DNA from: a phage
Reading direction: 5' to 3' (one strand)
NCBI GenBank assembly: GCA_012646845.1
Contig: GCA_012646845.1_4707.2
Length of the DNA: 44,786 nucleotides
Shown here: positions 1-20,660 of the stretch, piece by piece
Layout of the letters: every line of letters starts with the position of its first letter
Position numbering within the stretch: position 1 is the stretch's first letter
Notes under the pieces: model-generated
The model's input: the letters and a program-made list of their open reading frames with translations, nothing else
What the model was told of the DNA's origin: nothing
Databases searched by the model: none
Made by a program: the position numbers and the translations under genes

Positions 1-723
1 CAAGGCACACGTCTTGGCGGATACGCTTATCGTAAAGTGGTTCCCGACAGCGGGTTTACACCGCAGTTGTATCGTCACCGAGCTATCATGTTAGCGTTTA
101 CGAGATATGATGCTAACGTTGTGAACTTAACCGTAAACCATAAGAACGGAATTAAAGGTGACGATTGGTTTGATAACCTCGAATGGGCGACATATGCTGA
201 GAACAATCAACATGCTCGTATGGCAGGGTTGTGTATGGGTACGTCAAAACCTGTTTTGGTTTATGATTACCGTGCACGAATCGAACGTCGTTTTAATAGT
301 ATCGCAGAAGCGGAACGTGCTTATCCGTACGTGCCGAAAGGACGTTTCAAATGGTGGGTAAACAATCCTCCGAAACGTATCCCAGAATGCGATTTATACA
401 TCAAGTTTGCCACGGACAATACGCCTTGGCCGGAGTGGAAACTTGGAGAAGATCGTCGTGTCGAGGACACTGATGGTCGCGGTATTCTCGCTATTAATAA
501 AGAGACGAACGAACGACATGTGTTTCCATCAGTAACTGCTGCCGCAAATGCGTTAGGAATCTCCTGGATTACCGTAAGACGTCATTGCGATCGTCGTGCA
601 GTACCTACGAAACAGCCTTGGTGTTTTCGTTATGCCGATGATATTGCCGCTATGCCTGATTTCGATGTTAATAAATTAGTTCCTAAGAAGAAGCGTGTAT
701 TTAATGTTCCATTAGAACGATAA
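1..723 (+). CDS. HNH homing endonuclease (5' end beyond window edge)
   Basis: Frame open from nt 1 (track start at 37 is GTG); HNH motif VNHKNGIKGDDWFDNLEWATYAENNQHA; C-terminal NUMOD/IENR-like HTH (ALGISWITVRRH). Confidence 0.8.
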   Translation, partial: QGTRLGGYAYRKVVPDSGFTPQLYRHRAIMLAFTRYDANVVNLTVNHKNGIKGDDWFDNLEWATYAENNQHARMAGLCMGTSKPVLVYDYRARIERRFNSIAEAERAYPYVPKGRFKWWVNNPPKRIPECDLYIKFATDNTPWPEWKLGEDRRVEDTDGRGILAINKETNERHVFPSVTAAANALGISWITVRRHCDRRAVPTKQPWCFRYADDIAAMPDFDVNKLVPKKKRVFNVPLER

Positions 724-1197
724 CAGGTCCCCCTACTTGTAATGAGTGGGTGAACTCTCTTTAATTGCTGGAAACCTTTAATGCCCCTCCACACCACAAC
801 GCAATCCGAAAGGGTAAACGTGATGGTTGTCGAAAGACAGAAAAAAGTTGGAGGGGATTACCTATGTTGCAATAAAAGCCGCCGCTTTCTTGGATAACGA
901 AAGGTAACGGTGGTACTAAGGGTAGAAGATAGAAATAAGGTGATCAGCAGCGAAGCCTCTACGGACTGTCGTGACCGATTTCAATAATCGGCGTACAATG
1001 TGCGGACAGACTACGAGGAACGTTCAACGGCCATCCGGTTGCGCGGAGTAGGAGAATTAGGATGTTCTCTGAAAAGGGAGAAGTCGGTCGAGGTGTTGTA
1101 GAAACACCGTTCGGTTTGCTAACGCAAATCTAAGACAGGCTAAGATATGGTCTATTTTACGTTGCGTTCATGTATAGAAATTACTGAACTATCGTAA
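724..1197 (+). ncRNA. Candidate 3' portion of a group I intron (structured, ORF-free)
   Basis: No ORF >=60 aa; R-like ACAGACTACG at 1006-1015 and S-like AAGATATGGTCT at 1142-1153 could form P7 (GACUA/UGGUC); lies directly downstream of an HNH ORF. Confidence 0.3.
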
Positions 1198-1455
1198 GAG
1201 CTCGATATATCTTCAAGTTATCCAAATGGGCAGATACTGCTCAATCTATCCAGAGCGTGTGTTTTTCGCGAGCTCTCACGCATTGAGGGCGTCTCTGACT
1301 ATCAATTCAGGAAGTTAGGTATCAACTTTATTACCGGAGGTAAAACGAACGCTGTAGACTTCTGTAGAATCGTTTATAAAGCACCGTCGATGTTTGAACT
1401 CTTAGAACATTTCGATGCGACGCGTCCAAAAGAGGAAGCGCGAACCATCGAATGA
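1198..1455 (+). CDS. Candidate 3' exon: start-less open frame of 85 codons ending TGA 1453-1455
   Basis: Frame open from stop at 1195-1197 to 1453-1455 with no ATG/GTG/TTG before 1387; followed by a plus-oriented terminator hairpin. Confidence 0.25.
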   Translation, partial: ELDISSSYPNGQILLNLSRACVFRELSRIEGVSDYQFRKLGINFITGGKTNAVDFCRIVYKAPSMFELLEHFDATRPKEEARTIE

Positions 1456-1498
1456 ATCAAGTATGTTGATCCTCGTTTAACAAAAAGAAAACGCATGC

Positions 1499-1547
1499 GA
1501 AGCCCCTCCCCCCGGCGGAAGCCGGAGGGAGGGGTGAGGTTTATGCG
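1499..1547 (+). terminator. GC-rich hairpin (CCCCTCCCCCCGG/CCGGAGGGAGGGG) followed by TTTATGC
   Basis: Inverted repeat 1503-1534 then TGAGGTTTATGCGCG; member of recurrent hairpin family. Confidence 0.5.
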
Positions 1548-2026
1548 CGTTCGTTGCCAACCGTTACTTTGTAGTCAGCGTCGGTTAAGAAAATAGACAG
1601 GAATCCATGTTCTTTGCAAATCTGACTAAGGATGTCAGCAATGATTTCGTTGATCATCGGTTTGTTTGCAAGGGCATAGATGTACCCGGGTGTAAAAGAA
1701 AGTGCGTGATTGATCATAGGCTCATGAGAAGCCAAGATAAGGATCACGTGATGCTTCCCATCGTCGGTAATGACCGCTTGCGTAGACACGAAGAAATCAG
1801 TGAAGCAGCAGCGATCACAGGCTTTAGGTATATACAAATCACCCAGAGCTTCGTCGCGTGCTTTTATGTGTGTTTCAGGGGTGATGCTGCTAAGTTGATC
1901 TTCAGCGAGATCCAAGACATCCTCAATCGTTTTAAGAATAGCGTTGCGGAAATCCTCGCGGTAGAATGGGATGATATCACGATCGTTCATGTAATCGCCG
2001 GATTCGATAGTAAAGTTGATGTTCAT
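1541..2026 (-). CDS. hypothetical protein (161 aa)
   Basis: ORF track; acidic protein-like composition; overlaps less convincing plus-strand ORF. Confidence 0.55.
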   Translation of the reverse strand: MNINFTIESGDYMNDRDIIPFYREDFRNAILKTIEDVLDLAEDQLSSITPETHIKARDEALGDLYIPKACDRCCFTDFFVSTQAVITDDGKHHVILILASHEPMINHALSFTPGYIYALANKPMINEIIADILSQICKEHGFLSIFLTDADYKVTVGNERA

Positions 2027-2136
2027 TGAATGCTCCTAGTGGTTATGTCGATTGATTGACGTGTTAATTTATGTTTGATGAGGTATACTTGAAACTACAA
2101 ATAAGGCTCTCGGCGTTGCTGTTATGGTTCAGTTCT

Positions 2137-2586
2137 TTATCCCTTGTTGGATTCGTCAATATACTTGGTGTCGTAAGACAAATGCTGAATTAATTTTCTA
2201 GGTCTGATGAATATACGACATGTGATAAACACATCAGGATCGTATTGTTCCACGCAACGTCCGAAGGCTCGTTTTGCGGACTGACGCATCAGGGTTAATT
2301 CCTGATCGTTCATCTCATCATCAAATTCGATGTGTATCGTGATTTTATCGGGAAATAAATAGATAGAGTAATCGCTACCAATACCGCCGTCGTCAAAGCG
2401 ATAATCGTTGTGGCAATGGTGGAGTTTACCTTCGTGTATCGTCTGGTACCACCCGACGATACTATCAAGACCCATACCCAGGTGTCCGAATGCTTGGTTA
2501 ATAATATCCTCGACGACGGATGCGGGCGTGGGACCATGGAATAGACGATCTAAGCGCTTTTTCATTGATTTGGTTTTCTCGTTCAT
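2137..2586 (-). CDS. hypothetical protein (149 aa)
   Basis: ORF track; co-oriented with neighbours. Confidence 0.6.
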   Translation of the reverse strand: MNEKTKSMKKRLDRLFHGPTPASVVEDIINQAFGHLGMGLDSIVGWYQTIHEGKLHHCHNDYRFDDGGIGSDYSIYLFPDKITIHIEFDDEMNDQELTLMRQSAKRAFGRCVEQYDPDVFITCRIFIRPRKLIQHLSYDTKYIDESNKG

Positions 2587-2608
2587 GATTTTTTTCCTGT
2601 TATAATCG

Positions 2609-2657
2609 GCATACAGCCCTTCCCCGGCCTTGACGGCTAGGGAAGGGGCTATGCTAC
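2609..2657 (-). terminator. GCATA-flanked GC-rich hairpin (family member)
   Basis: GCATACAGCCCTTCCCC ... GGGAAGGGGCTATGC inverted repeat immediately after stop of 2662..3060. Confidence 0.45.
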
Positions 2658-2661
2658 GTTG

Positions 2662-3060
2662 TTATGCTTCGCAATCAGCTGAAGGCGTCGCGCCTTTCTT
2701 ACCAACGATACGCCAAATCCGACACGCTGGGTAATGGTTAACCTCTAGAGAGCAAGGAATGTTATATTTCTCTTCCAGCGCATAAAGACATTTCGTTAGC
2801 TGCTCCAGCGCGTTCTCGTCGTGTCGTAACGCGTGGTGGCCTAATCGATGTTGGTCGTTCTTTATATACGCCTCGAAGAGAACATGTTGGCGATGTACGC
2901 TGACGTTTACAGCCTCGAGTATAGCTTGGTCGAGCATACGACTAAAGCACATCAACGAGTCAGATACGTTTTCTCGCTTAACCAGATCGATCATGGCGGG
3001 AATATACGAATGGTCGATGTTATCGATGACCGCTTTAGCGACGGAATCCGCAATGTTCAT
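2662..3060 (-). CDS. hypothetical protein, tandem paralog 1 (132 aa)
   Basis: N-terminus MNIADSVAKAVIDNIDH... closely matches neighbour MSIVESIVKAVNDNIDH... Confidence 0.7.
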   Translation of the reverse strand: MNIADSVAKAVIDNIDHSYIPAMIDLVKRENVSDSLMCFSRMLDQAILEAVNVSVHRQHVLFEAYIKNDQHRLGHHALRHDENALEQLTKCLYALEEKYNIPCSLEVNHYPACRIWRIVGKKGATPSADCEA

Positions 3061-3095
3061 CTTTTAATCCCTAGTTTGTTATTGATCACGTATAT

Positions 3096-3491
3096 TTACT
3101 CTTTGACGTCGGTTGTTGTTTCGGTGTGTTTCTCGCTGCTGATGTACCAGAGCAGGTACGCTGGGAAAAGATTGACCTCTAAGCTAAATGGGGTATTGTA
3201 TTTCTCTTCCATTTTACAGAGATGTTCTTTAAGTAAATTTCTCGCGTCACTATCACCACGAACAGAGTGCCAGTCTAGTTCTTTGTTCTCCTTTACCAGG
3301 ACCTCTACGATGATACGTTGCTCGTGAACCTCGGTTTTCACAGTGAAAAGTAAATCGCTGCTATCAAAACGGGTAAAACGAATGTATGAACCAGGTGTTT
3401 TTTCTTGTTTAATAATATCGATCATGGTAGAAATGCGCGGATGATCGATGTTGTCGTTAACAGCTTTAACGATGGATTCTACAATGCTCAT
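3096..3491 (-). CDS. hypothetical protein, tandem paralog 2 (131 aa)
   Basis: Shared N-terminal and central motifs (EEKYN.P.SLEVN) with 2662..3060. Confidence 0.7.
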   Translation of the reverse strand: MSIVESIVKAVNDNIDHPRISTMIDIIKQEKTPGSYIRFTRFDSSDLLFTVKTEVHEQRIIVEVLVKENKELDWHSVRGDSDARNLLKEHLCKMEEKYNTPFSLEVNLFPAYLLWYISSEKHTETTTDVKE

Positions 3492-3615
3492 TTTTTATCC
3501 TTAATGTTATCGATTTGGAAATATTACTTATTTACTGTTTTCTTTATCAACAGTTGTTACCCACGACATGATGGCGGGATGAAAACAGAGCGTGAACGTA
3601 ACCTTCGCGTCGTAT

Positions 3616-4098
3616 TTAAACGCGCAGTTCGCTAGCCGAGTATCGAACGTTTTCCTTTTCGTCTGGAGAGTATTCCATCGTGTAGAATTCATAACCATCG
3701 GAAAACTTGAGTGTTAATGTAATAGGGAAATCGCACGGCATAGCTGATTTCGTAAATGCGTTATTAGCAACATCAGCCAACCGACGTATAGCATCAGTCC
3801 CGCTGACGCTGAACGGTAGTTGTATGTTGATAAGGATACGATGCTTGTAAACATAGAAAACAACGGTACTGTCGAGATAAACGCTGTGGAACGGTATTGT
3901 TGGGATGCGTTCCACGATGGTAAAATACGTCCCGTCATTATCGCTATGTCCCACCGACCAAATATCGGATTTGCGTAGATTTTGTTTGAGAGATTCGATG
4001 CTTCGAGTGACGGTATCAACAACAGGTGTAACGTAAGTGTCTTTATGCGAGTCGAAAAGTTCGTTGACGTTAGATTCGAATGAATACGTTGTTGCCAT
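3616..4098 (-). CDS. hypothetical protein (160 aa)
   Basis: ORF track; co-oriented gene block. Confidence 0.6.
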   Translation of the reverse strand: MATTYSFESNVNELFDSHKDTYVTPVVDTVTRSIESLKQNLRKSDIWSVGHSDNDGTYFTIVERIPTIPFHSVYLDSTVVFYVYKHRILINIQLPFSVSGTDAIRRLADVANNAFTKSAMPCDFPITLTLKFSDGYEFYTMEYSPDEKENVRYSASELRV

Positions 4099-20075: not shown

Positions 20076-20660
20076 TTACACAGCTGTAGGAAGTTCAGGC
20101 CAATCGATATTTGGTGCTGTTGATGTGTCAACGCGGTGCAGAGCCACCCGATACTTTTTCCATGCTGTCAGCATCGACACCTCTTCTTCCGTTGCGATCT
20201 CCAGATCCACAGCATCCTGAAGTGGCGCAATACGATCATTCGCTGCCTGCATCAGACTGTTTTTTGTTTCTTCCGCCTCCCGGACATGGGATTGTTTTTC
20301 CGCATCTGTATCTTTCACCCAGGTTGTTCCGTCCCACTTCTGAAACTCTCCTTCCGGGGATAACCAAGTAGTATTTTCTGGTAACGGACCGAGTTCAGAA
20401 ATAAATAACGCGTCGCCGGAAGCCACATCATAGACGGTTTTACCCCGATGGTCTTCAACAATATACCACGATTCATTTTCACTGTTAAAAACTGCCACAA
20501 AGTCAGCAGGAATTTCCGGTGGGGCGATATCTGTAGAATTAGCTGGTAGTCCCGTATGCGGTGGAATATATGCGTCGCCTTCACCAATAAACTCATTGGT
20601 TCCGGCCAGCAGATTATAAATTTTTATGGTTTGTGGTTCATCACTCATTCTGAATGCCAT
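20076..20660 (-). CDS. tail fibre assembly protein (chaperone)
   Basis: Start overlaps fibre stop (TAATG); sequence resembles Tfa/gpG-type chaperones; position immediately downstream of fibre gene. Confidence 0.8.

Follow-up and report, generated by a model that had tools for sequence, protein, structure and literature searches.

A probable mobile group I intron encoding an HNH endonuclease interrupts the family-B DNA polymerase gene of a Goslar-like jumbo phage

Group I introns bearing HNH endonuclease genes have been known in phage polymerase genes since the 1990s (SPO1 I-HmuI, Bastille I-BasI and Pf-WMP3 I-PfoP3I), and a further example is conceptually nothing new. In nucleus-forming jumbo phages (chimalliviruses), introns are already known in RNA polymerase genes, namely in gp211/209 and in gp65-66 of PhiPA3. 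The HNH endonuclease gp210, whose gene is in the intron that interrupts gp211/209, the virion RNA polymerase gene of this Pseudomonas chimallivirus, is active and has a competitive effect (Birkholz et al. 2024, PMC11620839). Here, we describe an insertion in a DNA polymerase gene at the 5' end of a 44,786-nucleotide (nt) stretch of phage DNA (the window; contig GCA_012646845.1_4707.2 of NCBI GenBank assembly GCA_012646845.1). Positions 1-1200 of the window are, with a probability of about 0.93, the 3' part of a mobile, subgroup IA-type group I intron in the family-B DNA polymerase gene (phiKZ gp82/Goslar gp068 type) of a Goslar-like phage. This assignment is carried by a match to an RNA family, covariation, exact restoration of the exons, selection on both open reading frames (ORFs), the nucleotides at the splice sites and the recurrence of inserts at the same site in distant hosts. 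An earlier reading of this DNA (the original prediction) had proposed a plus-strand gene interrupted by a group I intron with an HNH gene, and this overall proposal is supported: a covariance-model match, homology of the downstream frame to the C-terminus of a protein and a compatible upstream exon were all found.

The self-splicing PhiPA3 gp210 intron resembles the insertion in the window in being group I-type, in lying beside catalytic aspartate codons of a polymerase gene that is essential to a nucleus-forming jumbo phage and in encoding an HNH enzyme. However, it interrupts an RNA polymerase gene and not a DNA polymerase gene, and it belongs to another phage genus with a Pseudomonas instead of an E. 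coli host. The activity of gp210 and its role in competition have been demonstrated; that of the window, a homologue of Goslar gp069, is a putative endonuclease. The Bacillus phages SPO1, SP82 and Bastille have DNA polymerase introns that encode the nicking HNH endonucleases I-HmuI, I-HmuII and I-BasI (PMC421625, PMC162337). The likenesses are a group I intron in a DNA polymerase gene, HNH and DNA-binding modules and insertion in a conserved motif, and homing starts with a nick; the Bacillus phage polymerases belong to family A, whereas that of the window phage is a divergent member of family B. Pf-WMP3 is similar in having an IA2 intron with the nicking HNH endonuclease I-PfoP3I in a phage DNA polymerase gene, but it is a podovirus and its polymerase is a T7-like family A enzyme. 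[quoted passage not shown]

Window positions 1-1700 match positions 81747-83448 of Escherichia phage vB_EcoM_Goslar (MK327938) with 96.4% identity. Goslar is a nucleus-forming jumbo phage of E. coli, and the window phage is Goslar-like. A third Goslar-like genome, IMG/VR UViG_3300011560_000001 (locus L005), includes the regions upstream of the window; in the intron region, blastn gives it identities of 96.2% with the window and 96.9% with Goslar. Comparisons of three genomes below are those of the window, Goslar (locus L001) and L005. In the public annotation of Goslar (GenBank and RefSeq), gp068 is a plus-strand gene of 499 codons called 'DNA polymerase' or 'hypothetical protein', and its product has a weak match to DNA_pol_B_exo1. 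The record continues with gp069, a 'NUMOD1 domain protein' of 396 amino acids (aa), then 819 nt of unannotated sequence and then minus-strand genes. The window starts inside the gp069 homologue and contains the following parts.

1-1200, plus strand: group I intron, its 3' 1,200 nt (Rfam Intron_gpI match; 96% identity to Goslar)
1-723, plus strand: C-terminal 240 codons and stop codon of an ORF for a putative HNH/NUMOD1 homing endonuclease, homologous to Goslar gp069 (396 aa)
1201-1455, plus strand: 3' exon, the last 84 codons and TGA of a phiKZ-gp82-type family-B DNA polymerase subunit, beginning LDISSSYPN

The original prediction had placed the 5' exon upstream of the window, and in both Goslar and L005 the polymerase's N-terminal portion is found there, ending ...GTT GCG GAT with TAA directly after it. 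In Goslar, exon 1 ends ...CGA TTA TTT GTT GCG GAT before the TAA; in the window, exon 2 starts CTC GAT ATA TCT. The insertion lies between the codons of Asp499 and Leu500. When gp068 and exon 2 are joined, they give a protein of 583 aa that reads ...RLFVAD/LDISSSYPNGQ... across the junction and aligns end to end with phiKZ gp82 and 201phi2-1 gp144 at 38-39% identity, with no insertion or deletion at the junction. The junction is inside the invariant A-D-L-D-I..S.YPN block of intron-less homologues. Searched with a 182-aa peptide that spans it, 287 of 291 phage records give one contiguous match, and the spliced protein matches PHROG 3011 in one stretch (positions 5-570 of 576, E 4e-178). A word-indexed protein search with the junction peptide returned two short fragments only. 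In an hhalign comparison with T4 gp43, ADLDISSSYPN falls on SFDLTSLYPS and Exo III on Exo III in collinear order, at E 0.067 and a very low probability; the junction likely lies two codons before the aspartate aligned with the catalytic Asp of T4 motif A (DxxSLYPS of the family-B polymerases). The polymerase profile found no useful match among solved structures, only chance matches to uL30.

The frame after the intron had been described as an 85-codon 3' exon without a start codon. Frame 1 is indeed open over 1198-1452, with an in-frame TAA in front of it at 1195-1197 and TGA at 1453-1455, and the suggested comparison with protein C-termini places it on positions 495-571 of 576 in PHROG 3011 'DNA polymerase' (E 6e-19). 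The start-less character of the exon stands, but its proposed beginning at 1198 does not: the exon proper begins at 1201, and GAG at 1198-1200 is the end of the intron. Nor is the first in-frame start at 1387, since the sole in-frame start codon is ATG at 1390-1392, until which exon 2 has no start of its own. An exhaustive HMMER search with exon 2 found 228 proteins, the full-length ones of which (548-700 aa) are matched at their C-termini. Because phiKZ gp82 and 201phi2-1 gp144 both stop within a few residues of the exon 2 stop codon, the short 3' exon is the natural C-terminus. The start-less exon 2 is under purifying selection: its protein is identical between the window and Goslar despite 10 nt differences, and 16 of the 17 variable sites in the three genomes are synonymous. 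Because it is conserved as protein and yet has no start codon of its own, exon 2 must be translated within a larger message.

The full intron is about 1,760 nt long. In Goslar it occupies MK327938 81187-82948, with U at position -1 and G as its last base, and by homology to Goslar (L001 7441) the 5' splice site is about 560 nt upstream of window base 1. The approximately 480 nt said to hold no ORF correspond to 724-1200 (477 nt), where the longest ORF is at most 38 aa. The covariance-model search that had been suggested, run here on 1-1700 with an E-value threshold, matches Rfam RF00028 Intron_gpI to 659-1177 (44.3 bits, E 1.3e-9, below the gathering score of 50) over the complete model (1-253); the Goslar intron scores 44.7 bits. 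A default Rfam scan of the whole window gave no intron match in the intron region because the score is below the gathering cutoff. The score is low because the intron has large inserts (P5 of about 150 nt, P6, P7.1/P7.2 between P7 and P3', and P8) and the 5' strand of P1 is 1.3 kilobases away. In a sensitive blastn search with the core, the P3-P5 region is 72-79% similar to stretches that lie unannotated within split genes in other phages, namely the tail tube genes of Staphylococcus phages, the portal gene of Brochothrix phage A9, the DNA polymerase III alpha gene of Lactococcus phage AM1, the RNA polymerase beta' gene of Vibrio phage pir03 and hypothetical genes of Klebsiella phage Miami and an Aeromonas phage. 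Because four of the six such loci tested give Intron_gpI matches of 38-55 bits, a Rfam score in the 40s is ordinary for related phage introns.

A manual secondary structure of 119 pairs was built on the three genomes. It comprises P2, P3, P4, P5 with an extension, P6 with P6a-c, P7, P7.1, P7.2, P8 with two sub-hairpins, and P9, and is given here with the guide sequence (lengths in base pairs, bp).

725-730, plus strand: internal guide sequence, from the comparison of same-site introns
731-750, plus strand: P2 hairpin, 7 bp with bulged U734 and loop GUAAU, invariant in the three genomes, with an equivalent after the guide in related introns
755-1153, plus strand: catalytic core, from the Rfam alignment and the manual model on three genomes
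755-762/1073-1080, plus strand: P3, manual model
766-771/944-949, plus strand: P4, manual model
775-778/937-940, plus strand: P5, with an extension of about 150 nt (P5a 784-791/849-856, two GAAA tetraloops and a hairpin at 879-913)
950-959/1015-1023, plus strand: P6, with P6a, P6b and P6c
1027-1033/1148-1153, plus strand: P7, with bulged C1028 and G1029-C1152 as the guanosine-binding G-C pair
1034-1047, plus strand: P7.1 hairpin, fitted by the manual model
1051-1070, plus strand: P7.2 hairpin, fitted by the manual model
1083-1089/1134-1140, plus strand: P8, with two sub-hairpins
1155-1199, plus strand: P9 hairpin
1200, plus strand: terminal guanosine (omega-G), which marks the 3' splice site

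In this model 99.2% of the cells are paired. Five double compensatory changes occur, at 956/1018 and 958/1016 in P6, 979/987 in P6b, 995/1001 in P6c and 883/909 in the P5 hairpin, and nine further pairs, including 1030/1151 of P7, show one-sided changes compatible with wobble pairing. When the 3' partners are slid by 1-3 columns as a control, pairing falls to 40-50% and no compensatory change is left. The window and Goslar differ by substitutions at 7.3% of the positions in the intron core, more than in exon 2 (3.9%) or in the ORF (2.1%), and the substitutions of the core are concentrated in loops and compensated stems. The original prediction had named an R-like element, ACAGACTACG at 1006-1015, and an S-like element, AAGATATGGTCT at 1142-1153, as the two strands of P7. 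Both strings are present at these positions, and the Rfam alignment puts the S element, AAGAUAUGGUCU (1142-1153), on the J8/7-P7' consensus. However, 1006-1015 is the 3' strand of P6a; the true R element and 5' strand of P7 is GUUCAACGGCCA at 1022-1033, which pairs with 1148-1153, and only the S half of the proposed P7 is retained.

G1200 is directly before exon 2, and the intron ends ...CGUAAGAG. The hairpins at 1034-1047 and 1051-1070, between P7 and P3', fit P7.1 and P7.2. Because they are invariant in the three genomes, the assignment to subgroup IA, which they fit, is made from sequence alone. In the T4 introns of td, nrdB and nrdD (sunY), which belong to subgroup IA2, P7.1 and P7.2 lie between P7 and P3', the last base is G, the 5' splice site has U.G and the ORF is looped out; that ORF specifies a GIY-YIG or His-Cys-type enzyme and is located in the loop of P6 or P9. 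The window intron shares with them candidate P7.1/P7.2 hairpins, the terminal G, the U.G pair and an endonuclease ORF outside the core, but it has a large P5 extension and its ORF is in L1. The intron ORFs of the Bacillus phages are in other peripheral loops, in contrast to the P1 loop here. The P5 extension (784-856, 810-842) forms two hairpins with GAAA caps, UCC-GAAA-GGG and GUC-GAAA-GAC; GAAA tetraloops frequently form tertiary contacts in large ribozymes.

Inserts recur at exactly this site. An IMG/VR scan with a small alignment of 6 sequences yielded 46 jumbo-phage loci. The reading frame runs unbroken through ...V(G/A)D LDV... in 37 of them, and inserts of 297-1775 nt lie exactly between the Asp and Leu/Ile codons in eight (L030, L033, L044, L046, L053, L055, L056 and L057). 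Many of the metagenomic proteins detected with exon 2 as the query also have their start exactly at the junction, as MLDV... or MDxKLDV.... All eight inserts are preceded by GAT, with U at -1, and have G as the last base, and six begin UAAC. Seven match Intron_gpI with 28-90 bits, five of these above the gathering score; the insert of L053 has no Intron_gpI match in Rfam. The Asp codon is GAC in 29 of the 37 intron-less loci (U at -1 in the other eight) and GAT in all eight intron-bearing ones, a split with a hypergeometric probability of about 6e-5 by hand calculation on loci that are not independent. The presence of GAT in all intron-bearing alleles fits the need for a U.G pair at the splice site. 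L030, L046 and L053 have ORFs of 445, 358 and 458 aa whose starts lie 46-63 nt past the 5' splice site and whose products share 28-33% identity with gp069 (E 1e-39 to 1e-61), and the first intron of L057 has an ORF of 433 aa. The inserts of L033, L044, L055 and L056 carry no ORF and measure 297-430 nt. At least three insertion points occur within eight codons: after Asp499, after Asp501 and inside the Tyr506 codon.

The second and third of these points are seen in other genomes. L057 (IMGVR_UViG_3300027724_000004, 2019-3998) has two group I introns in the polymerase motif, scoring 89 and 94 bits in Rfam: intron A of 1655 nt at the Asp/Leu boundary and intron B of 306 nt inside the Tyr codon. 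A micro-exon of 19 nt, CTAGATGTATCGGCATCGT (3674-3692), lies between them, and the three exons together give LDVSASYPNGE. In L058 (IMGVR_UViG_3300001765_000079, 1965-2016), a frame-breaking insert of 52 nt after the first base of the Tyr codon is at the position of L057 intron B; it is too short for a group I intron, and a remnant, an element of another kind and an error of assembly are all conceivable. The isolated Pseudomonas phage HPP-Temi (PP968062, 2964-4685; locus L060) is annotated with two 'DNA polymerase' coding sequences around an 'HNH endonuclease' that is 31.5% identical to gp069. Its intron (1722 nt, 59.2 bits in Rfam) is shifted downstream by 6 nt, where it follows the second Asp codon (VADLD/IVSTYPN), and has the guide GUCC on exon GGAU just before P2, inside the 3' end of the ORF. 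Because the same guide serves two neighbouring GGAU sites, the intron may have moved to the adjacent site.

The ORF that is open at the 5' edge of the window and ends at 723 had been read as an HNH endonuclease. It is in frame 1 with TAA at 721-723 and has Pfam matches to HNH_3 (E 3e-4, residues 42-69, nt 124-207) and NUMOD1 (E 3e-7, nt 496-585). The HNH motif, VNHKNG..DNLEW..ENNQH, starts at about nt 136. Full-length Goslar gp069 matches PHROG 59 'HNH endonuclease' (E 4e-18), and its NUMOD1 score of 29.5 bits is above the cutoff of 22.8; Pfam and NCBIfam contain no named endonuclease family that matches gp069 besides HNH_3 and NUMOD1. Taken together with the known systems, gp069 is probably a homing endonuclease. 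The intron ORF is under purifying selection: 15 nt differences between the window and Goslar change 1 aa, and in a further comparison of the three genomes about 35 nt differences change 5 aa.

The intron 5' leader of Goslar (L001 7464-7525) can form an extended hairpin of 11 bp or more that hides the GAGG ribosome-binding site of the ORF, and the L005 substitutions C7485U and C7488U in it both retain the G partner. Because the hairpin buries GAGG and these changes keep the pairing, translation of the endonuclease may be controlled by the leader. In the PhiPA3 genome, tblastn matches to gp069 reach 27% identity at best. One of them (HQ630627, 117324-118253, minus strand; 27% identity over 81% of the query) coincides with no annotated feature; it may represent an endonuclease ORF that has decayed or escaped annotation, and its place may be the intron reported in the non-virion RNA polymerase (nvRNAP) genes gp65-66.

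The alternative that survives best concerns this protein. The intron would splice, but the endonuclease would no longer support homing because its activity is lost, because the homing cycle has reached a late stage or because it serves another role, such as interference with co-infecting phages, for which PhiPA3 provides a precedent (PMC11620839). HNH_3 and NUMOD1 are the only recognisable domains, with HNH_3 below the Pfam cutoff, and because ORF-less versions of the intron occur at the same site (L033, L044, L055 and L056), ORFs seem to have been lost repeatedly. However, each of the three Goslar-like genomes has an intact ORF with few aa changes, the residues of the HNH motif are present, and distantly related hosts retain homologous ORFs at this very site, which speaks for recent activity. 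We regard the loss of homing as unlikely, perhaps one case in several; it is a refinement of the intron explanation and no contradiction to it.

The position of the ORF within the intron depends on P1. G727-U-C-C730 is complementary to the last four bases of the 5' exon, GGAU, with a G.U wobble at the splice site, and A725-G726 can pair with C1201-U1202 of exon 2 as a minimal P10. Three P1 candidates were found in Goslar by eye or by scan, and related introns at the same site were used to choose among them. The element G-U-C-(C/A)... immediately 5' of P2 is shared by six introns, and the guide tracks the exon: GCGGAU/GUCC in Goslar, L055 and L056, GGGGAU/GUCCC in L044 and L053, and GCUGAU/GUCAGC in L030. 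In L030 the P10 pairing extends over 6 bp, and in L053 and L056 over 4-5 bp. Because the guide at 727-730 is 3' of the ORF, four bases past its stop codon in the window, the endonuclease ORF and its leader are placed in the P1 loop; in L030 and L053 the ORF extends into the guide sequence and P2.

The two other candidates, both at the intron 5' end, were rejected. They would form a local P1, in which exon UUGCGGAU pairs with G9(U10)UCUGUAA17 of the intron or with GUUUACGAG at intron positions 84-92, an arrangement that would put the ORF between P1/P2 and P3. Such local pairing has the greater thermodynamic stability and is present in the minimum-free-energy fold of the 5' region in Goslar, and the candidate at 84-92 offers a P10 of 4 bp. 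Neither is conserved in related introns, whereas GUC(C/A)... directly 5' of P2 covaries with the exon in the six introns. Moreover, in L055, an intron with no ORF, the same GUCC stands 10 nt from the 5' end, and phage HPP-Temi has the same arrangement with the guide before P2. A local P1 is therefore improbable, and more so than the loss of homing.

Several points weigh against the intron explanation as a whole. The Rfam score of 44.3 bits is below the curated gathering cutoff of 50, and the P1 of the Rfam model at 659-684 is spurious, being forced onto ORF sequence. P1 is just 4 bp (GGAU/GUCC) and P10 just 2 bp in the window phage. Two pairs of the manual model are broken in relatives, one in P9 (1159/1195, in both other genomes) and one in P8a. 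P3, P5, P5a, P7.1 and P7.2 are invariant, and because the three genomes are about 96% identical, most helices go without a covariation test. The 5' exon and 5' splice site are outside the window and are placed from two relatives. The HNH_3 match of gp069 (E 5e-5, 23.3 bits) is just below the Pfam cutoff of 24.8, and a sequence search of solved structures, I-HmuI among them, found no relative of gp069. The junction region has no DNA_pol_B match in Pfam or NCBIfam, and the identification of motif A comes from the weak profile alignment to T4 gp43 (E 0.067). Splicing itself we infer from established group I biology.

That the polymerase is truly split and never rejoined, with gp068 truncated at the TAA, a free-standing HNH gene and a decaying remnant at 724-1455, agrees with the split annotation of Goslar in GenBank and RefSeq, the sub-threshold Rfam score and the frequent division of chimallivirus polymerases and RNA polymerases into several polypeptides (PMC7824862), but it is hardly credible, because a remnant would show neither synonymous bias in a start-less exon 2 (16 of 17 substitutions) nor a break midway in an invariant motif that 287 phage genomes carry in one piece nor pairing retained by compensatory changes in the RNA between the ORFs.

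If the intron explanation holds, the gene would be transcribed as a single plus-strand pre-mRNA, and the ribozyme core (P3-P9, 755-1199) would fold. The guide GUCC (727-730) would pair with the exon 1 end GGAU to form P1. External guanosine would attack after U-1, and the freed 3'-OH of exon 1 would attack after the terminal G1200. The ligated product would carry ...GTTGCGGAT joined to CTCGATATA... (at greater length, ...TTTGTTGCGGAT joined to CTCGATATATCT...) and encode the full-length polymerase subunit of 583 aa with the predicted junction peptide VADLDISSSYPNGQ / SYIRLFVADLDISSSYPNGQILLNLSR. By analogy with I-HmuI and PhiPA3 gp210, gp069 would nick intron-less alleles near the motif (intron-less junction GTTGCGGATCTCGATATATCT), and recombination repair would copy the intron in. 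Transcription takes place inside the phage nucleus and translation outside it in chimalliviruses (PMC12908238), and the endonuclease would thus need to be imported into the phage nucleus. Such import has been shown for PhiPA3 gp210 (PMC11620839).

Downstream of exon 2, the genes that follow are all on the minus strand, as had been noted, and one further feature separates them from the polymerase gene.

1502-1534, no strand assigned: GC-rich hairpin, probable terminator, between the convergent exon 2 (plus) and ORF 1541-2026 (minus)

A hairpin after the frame had been reported as the only plus-oriented member of a terminator-hairpin family. A very stable, GC-rich hairpin is present at about 1502-1534, with z scores of -4.2 on the plus strand and -5.25 on the minus strand, but the orientation is unsupported: a U-run follows on the minus strand only (UUUUCUUUUU), and the plus strand continues UGAGGUUUAUG. 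The similarity of L005 to the window and Goslar ends abruptly just past the hairpin (window beyond 1545; L005 1-656), where the neighbouring minus-strand gene is replaced by unrelated sequence. Because the similarity ends there, the hairpin marks a boundary of gene-content variation.

Across the whole window, Rfam reaches its gathering score only once, with RF02111 'IS009' (173.8 bits over the full length; 20119-20317, minus strand). The match is inside ORF 20076-20660 (minus strand), a tail-fibre-assembly (tfa) gene whose DNA is 81-83% identical to tfa of lambda and further lambdoid phages. What is listed as the IS009 'small RNA family' seems to consist of coding sequence from a prophage, and a tail-fibre chaperone module seems to be common to the jumbo phage and lambdoid phages.

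Goslar is the E. coli model for nucleus-forming phages, and the public records give an essential polymerase subunit of it as a truncated protein of 499 aa. The correct product would be a spliced protein of 583 aa whose catalytic motif is assembled only after RNA splicing. Reannotation would affect gene counts, core-genome alignments, polymerase phylogenies and knock-down or proteomics work on gp068 and gp069. The DNA polymerase gene would be a second essential-polymerase target for chimallivirus intron endonucleases, in a host with good genetics, and the idea that an intron endonuclease serves as a competitive weapon would become testable outside Pseudomonas. About one sixth of the sampled metagenomic relatives have an intron at the site, with or without an ORF, and provide a natural series for the homing cycle. 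The chances are about even that the Goslar intron belongs to an undescribed, long-lived lineage of group I introns with an HNH gene in the P1 loop, homing into the motif A codons of the divergent family-B polymerases across many phiKZ-like genera, and that its endonuclease could serve, as PhiPA3 gp210 does, as a weapon against co-infecting Goslar-like phages of E. coli.

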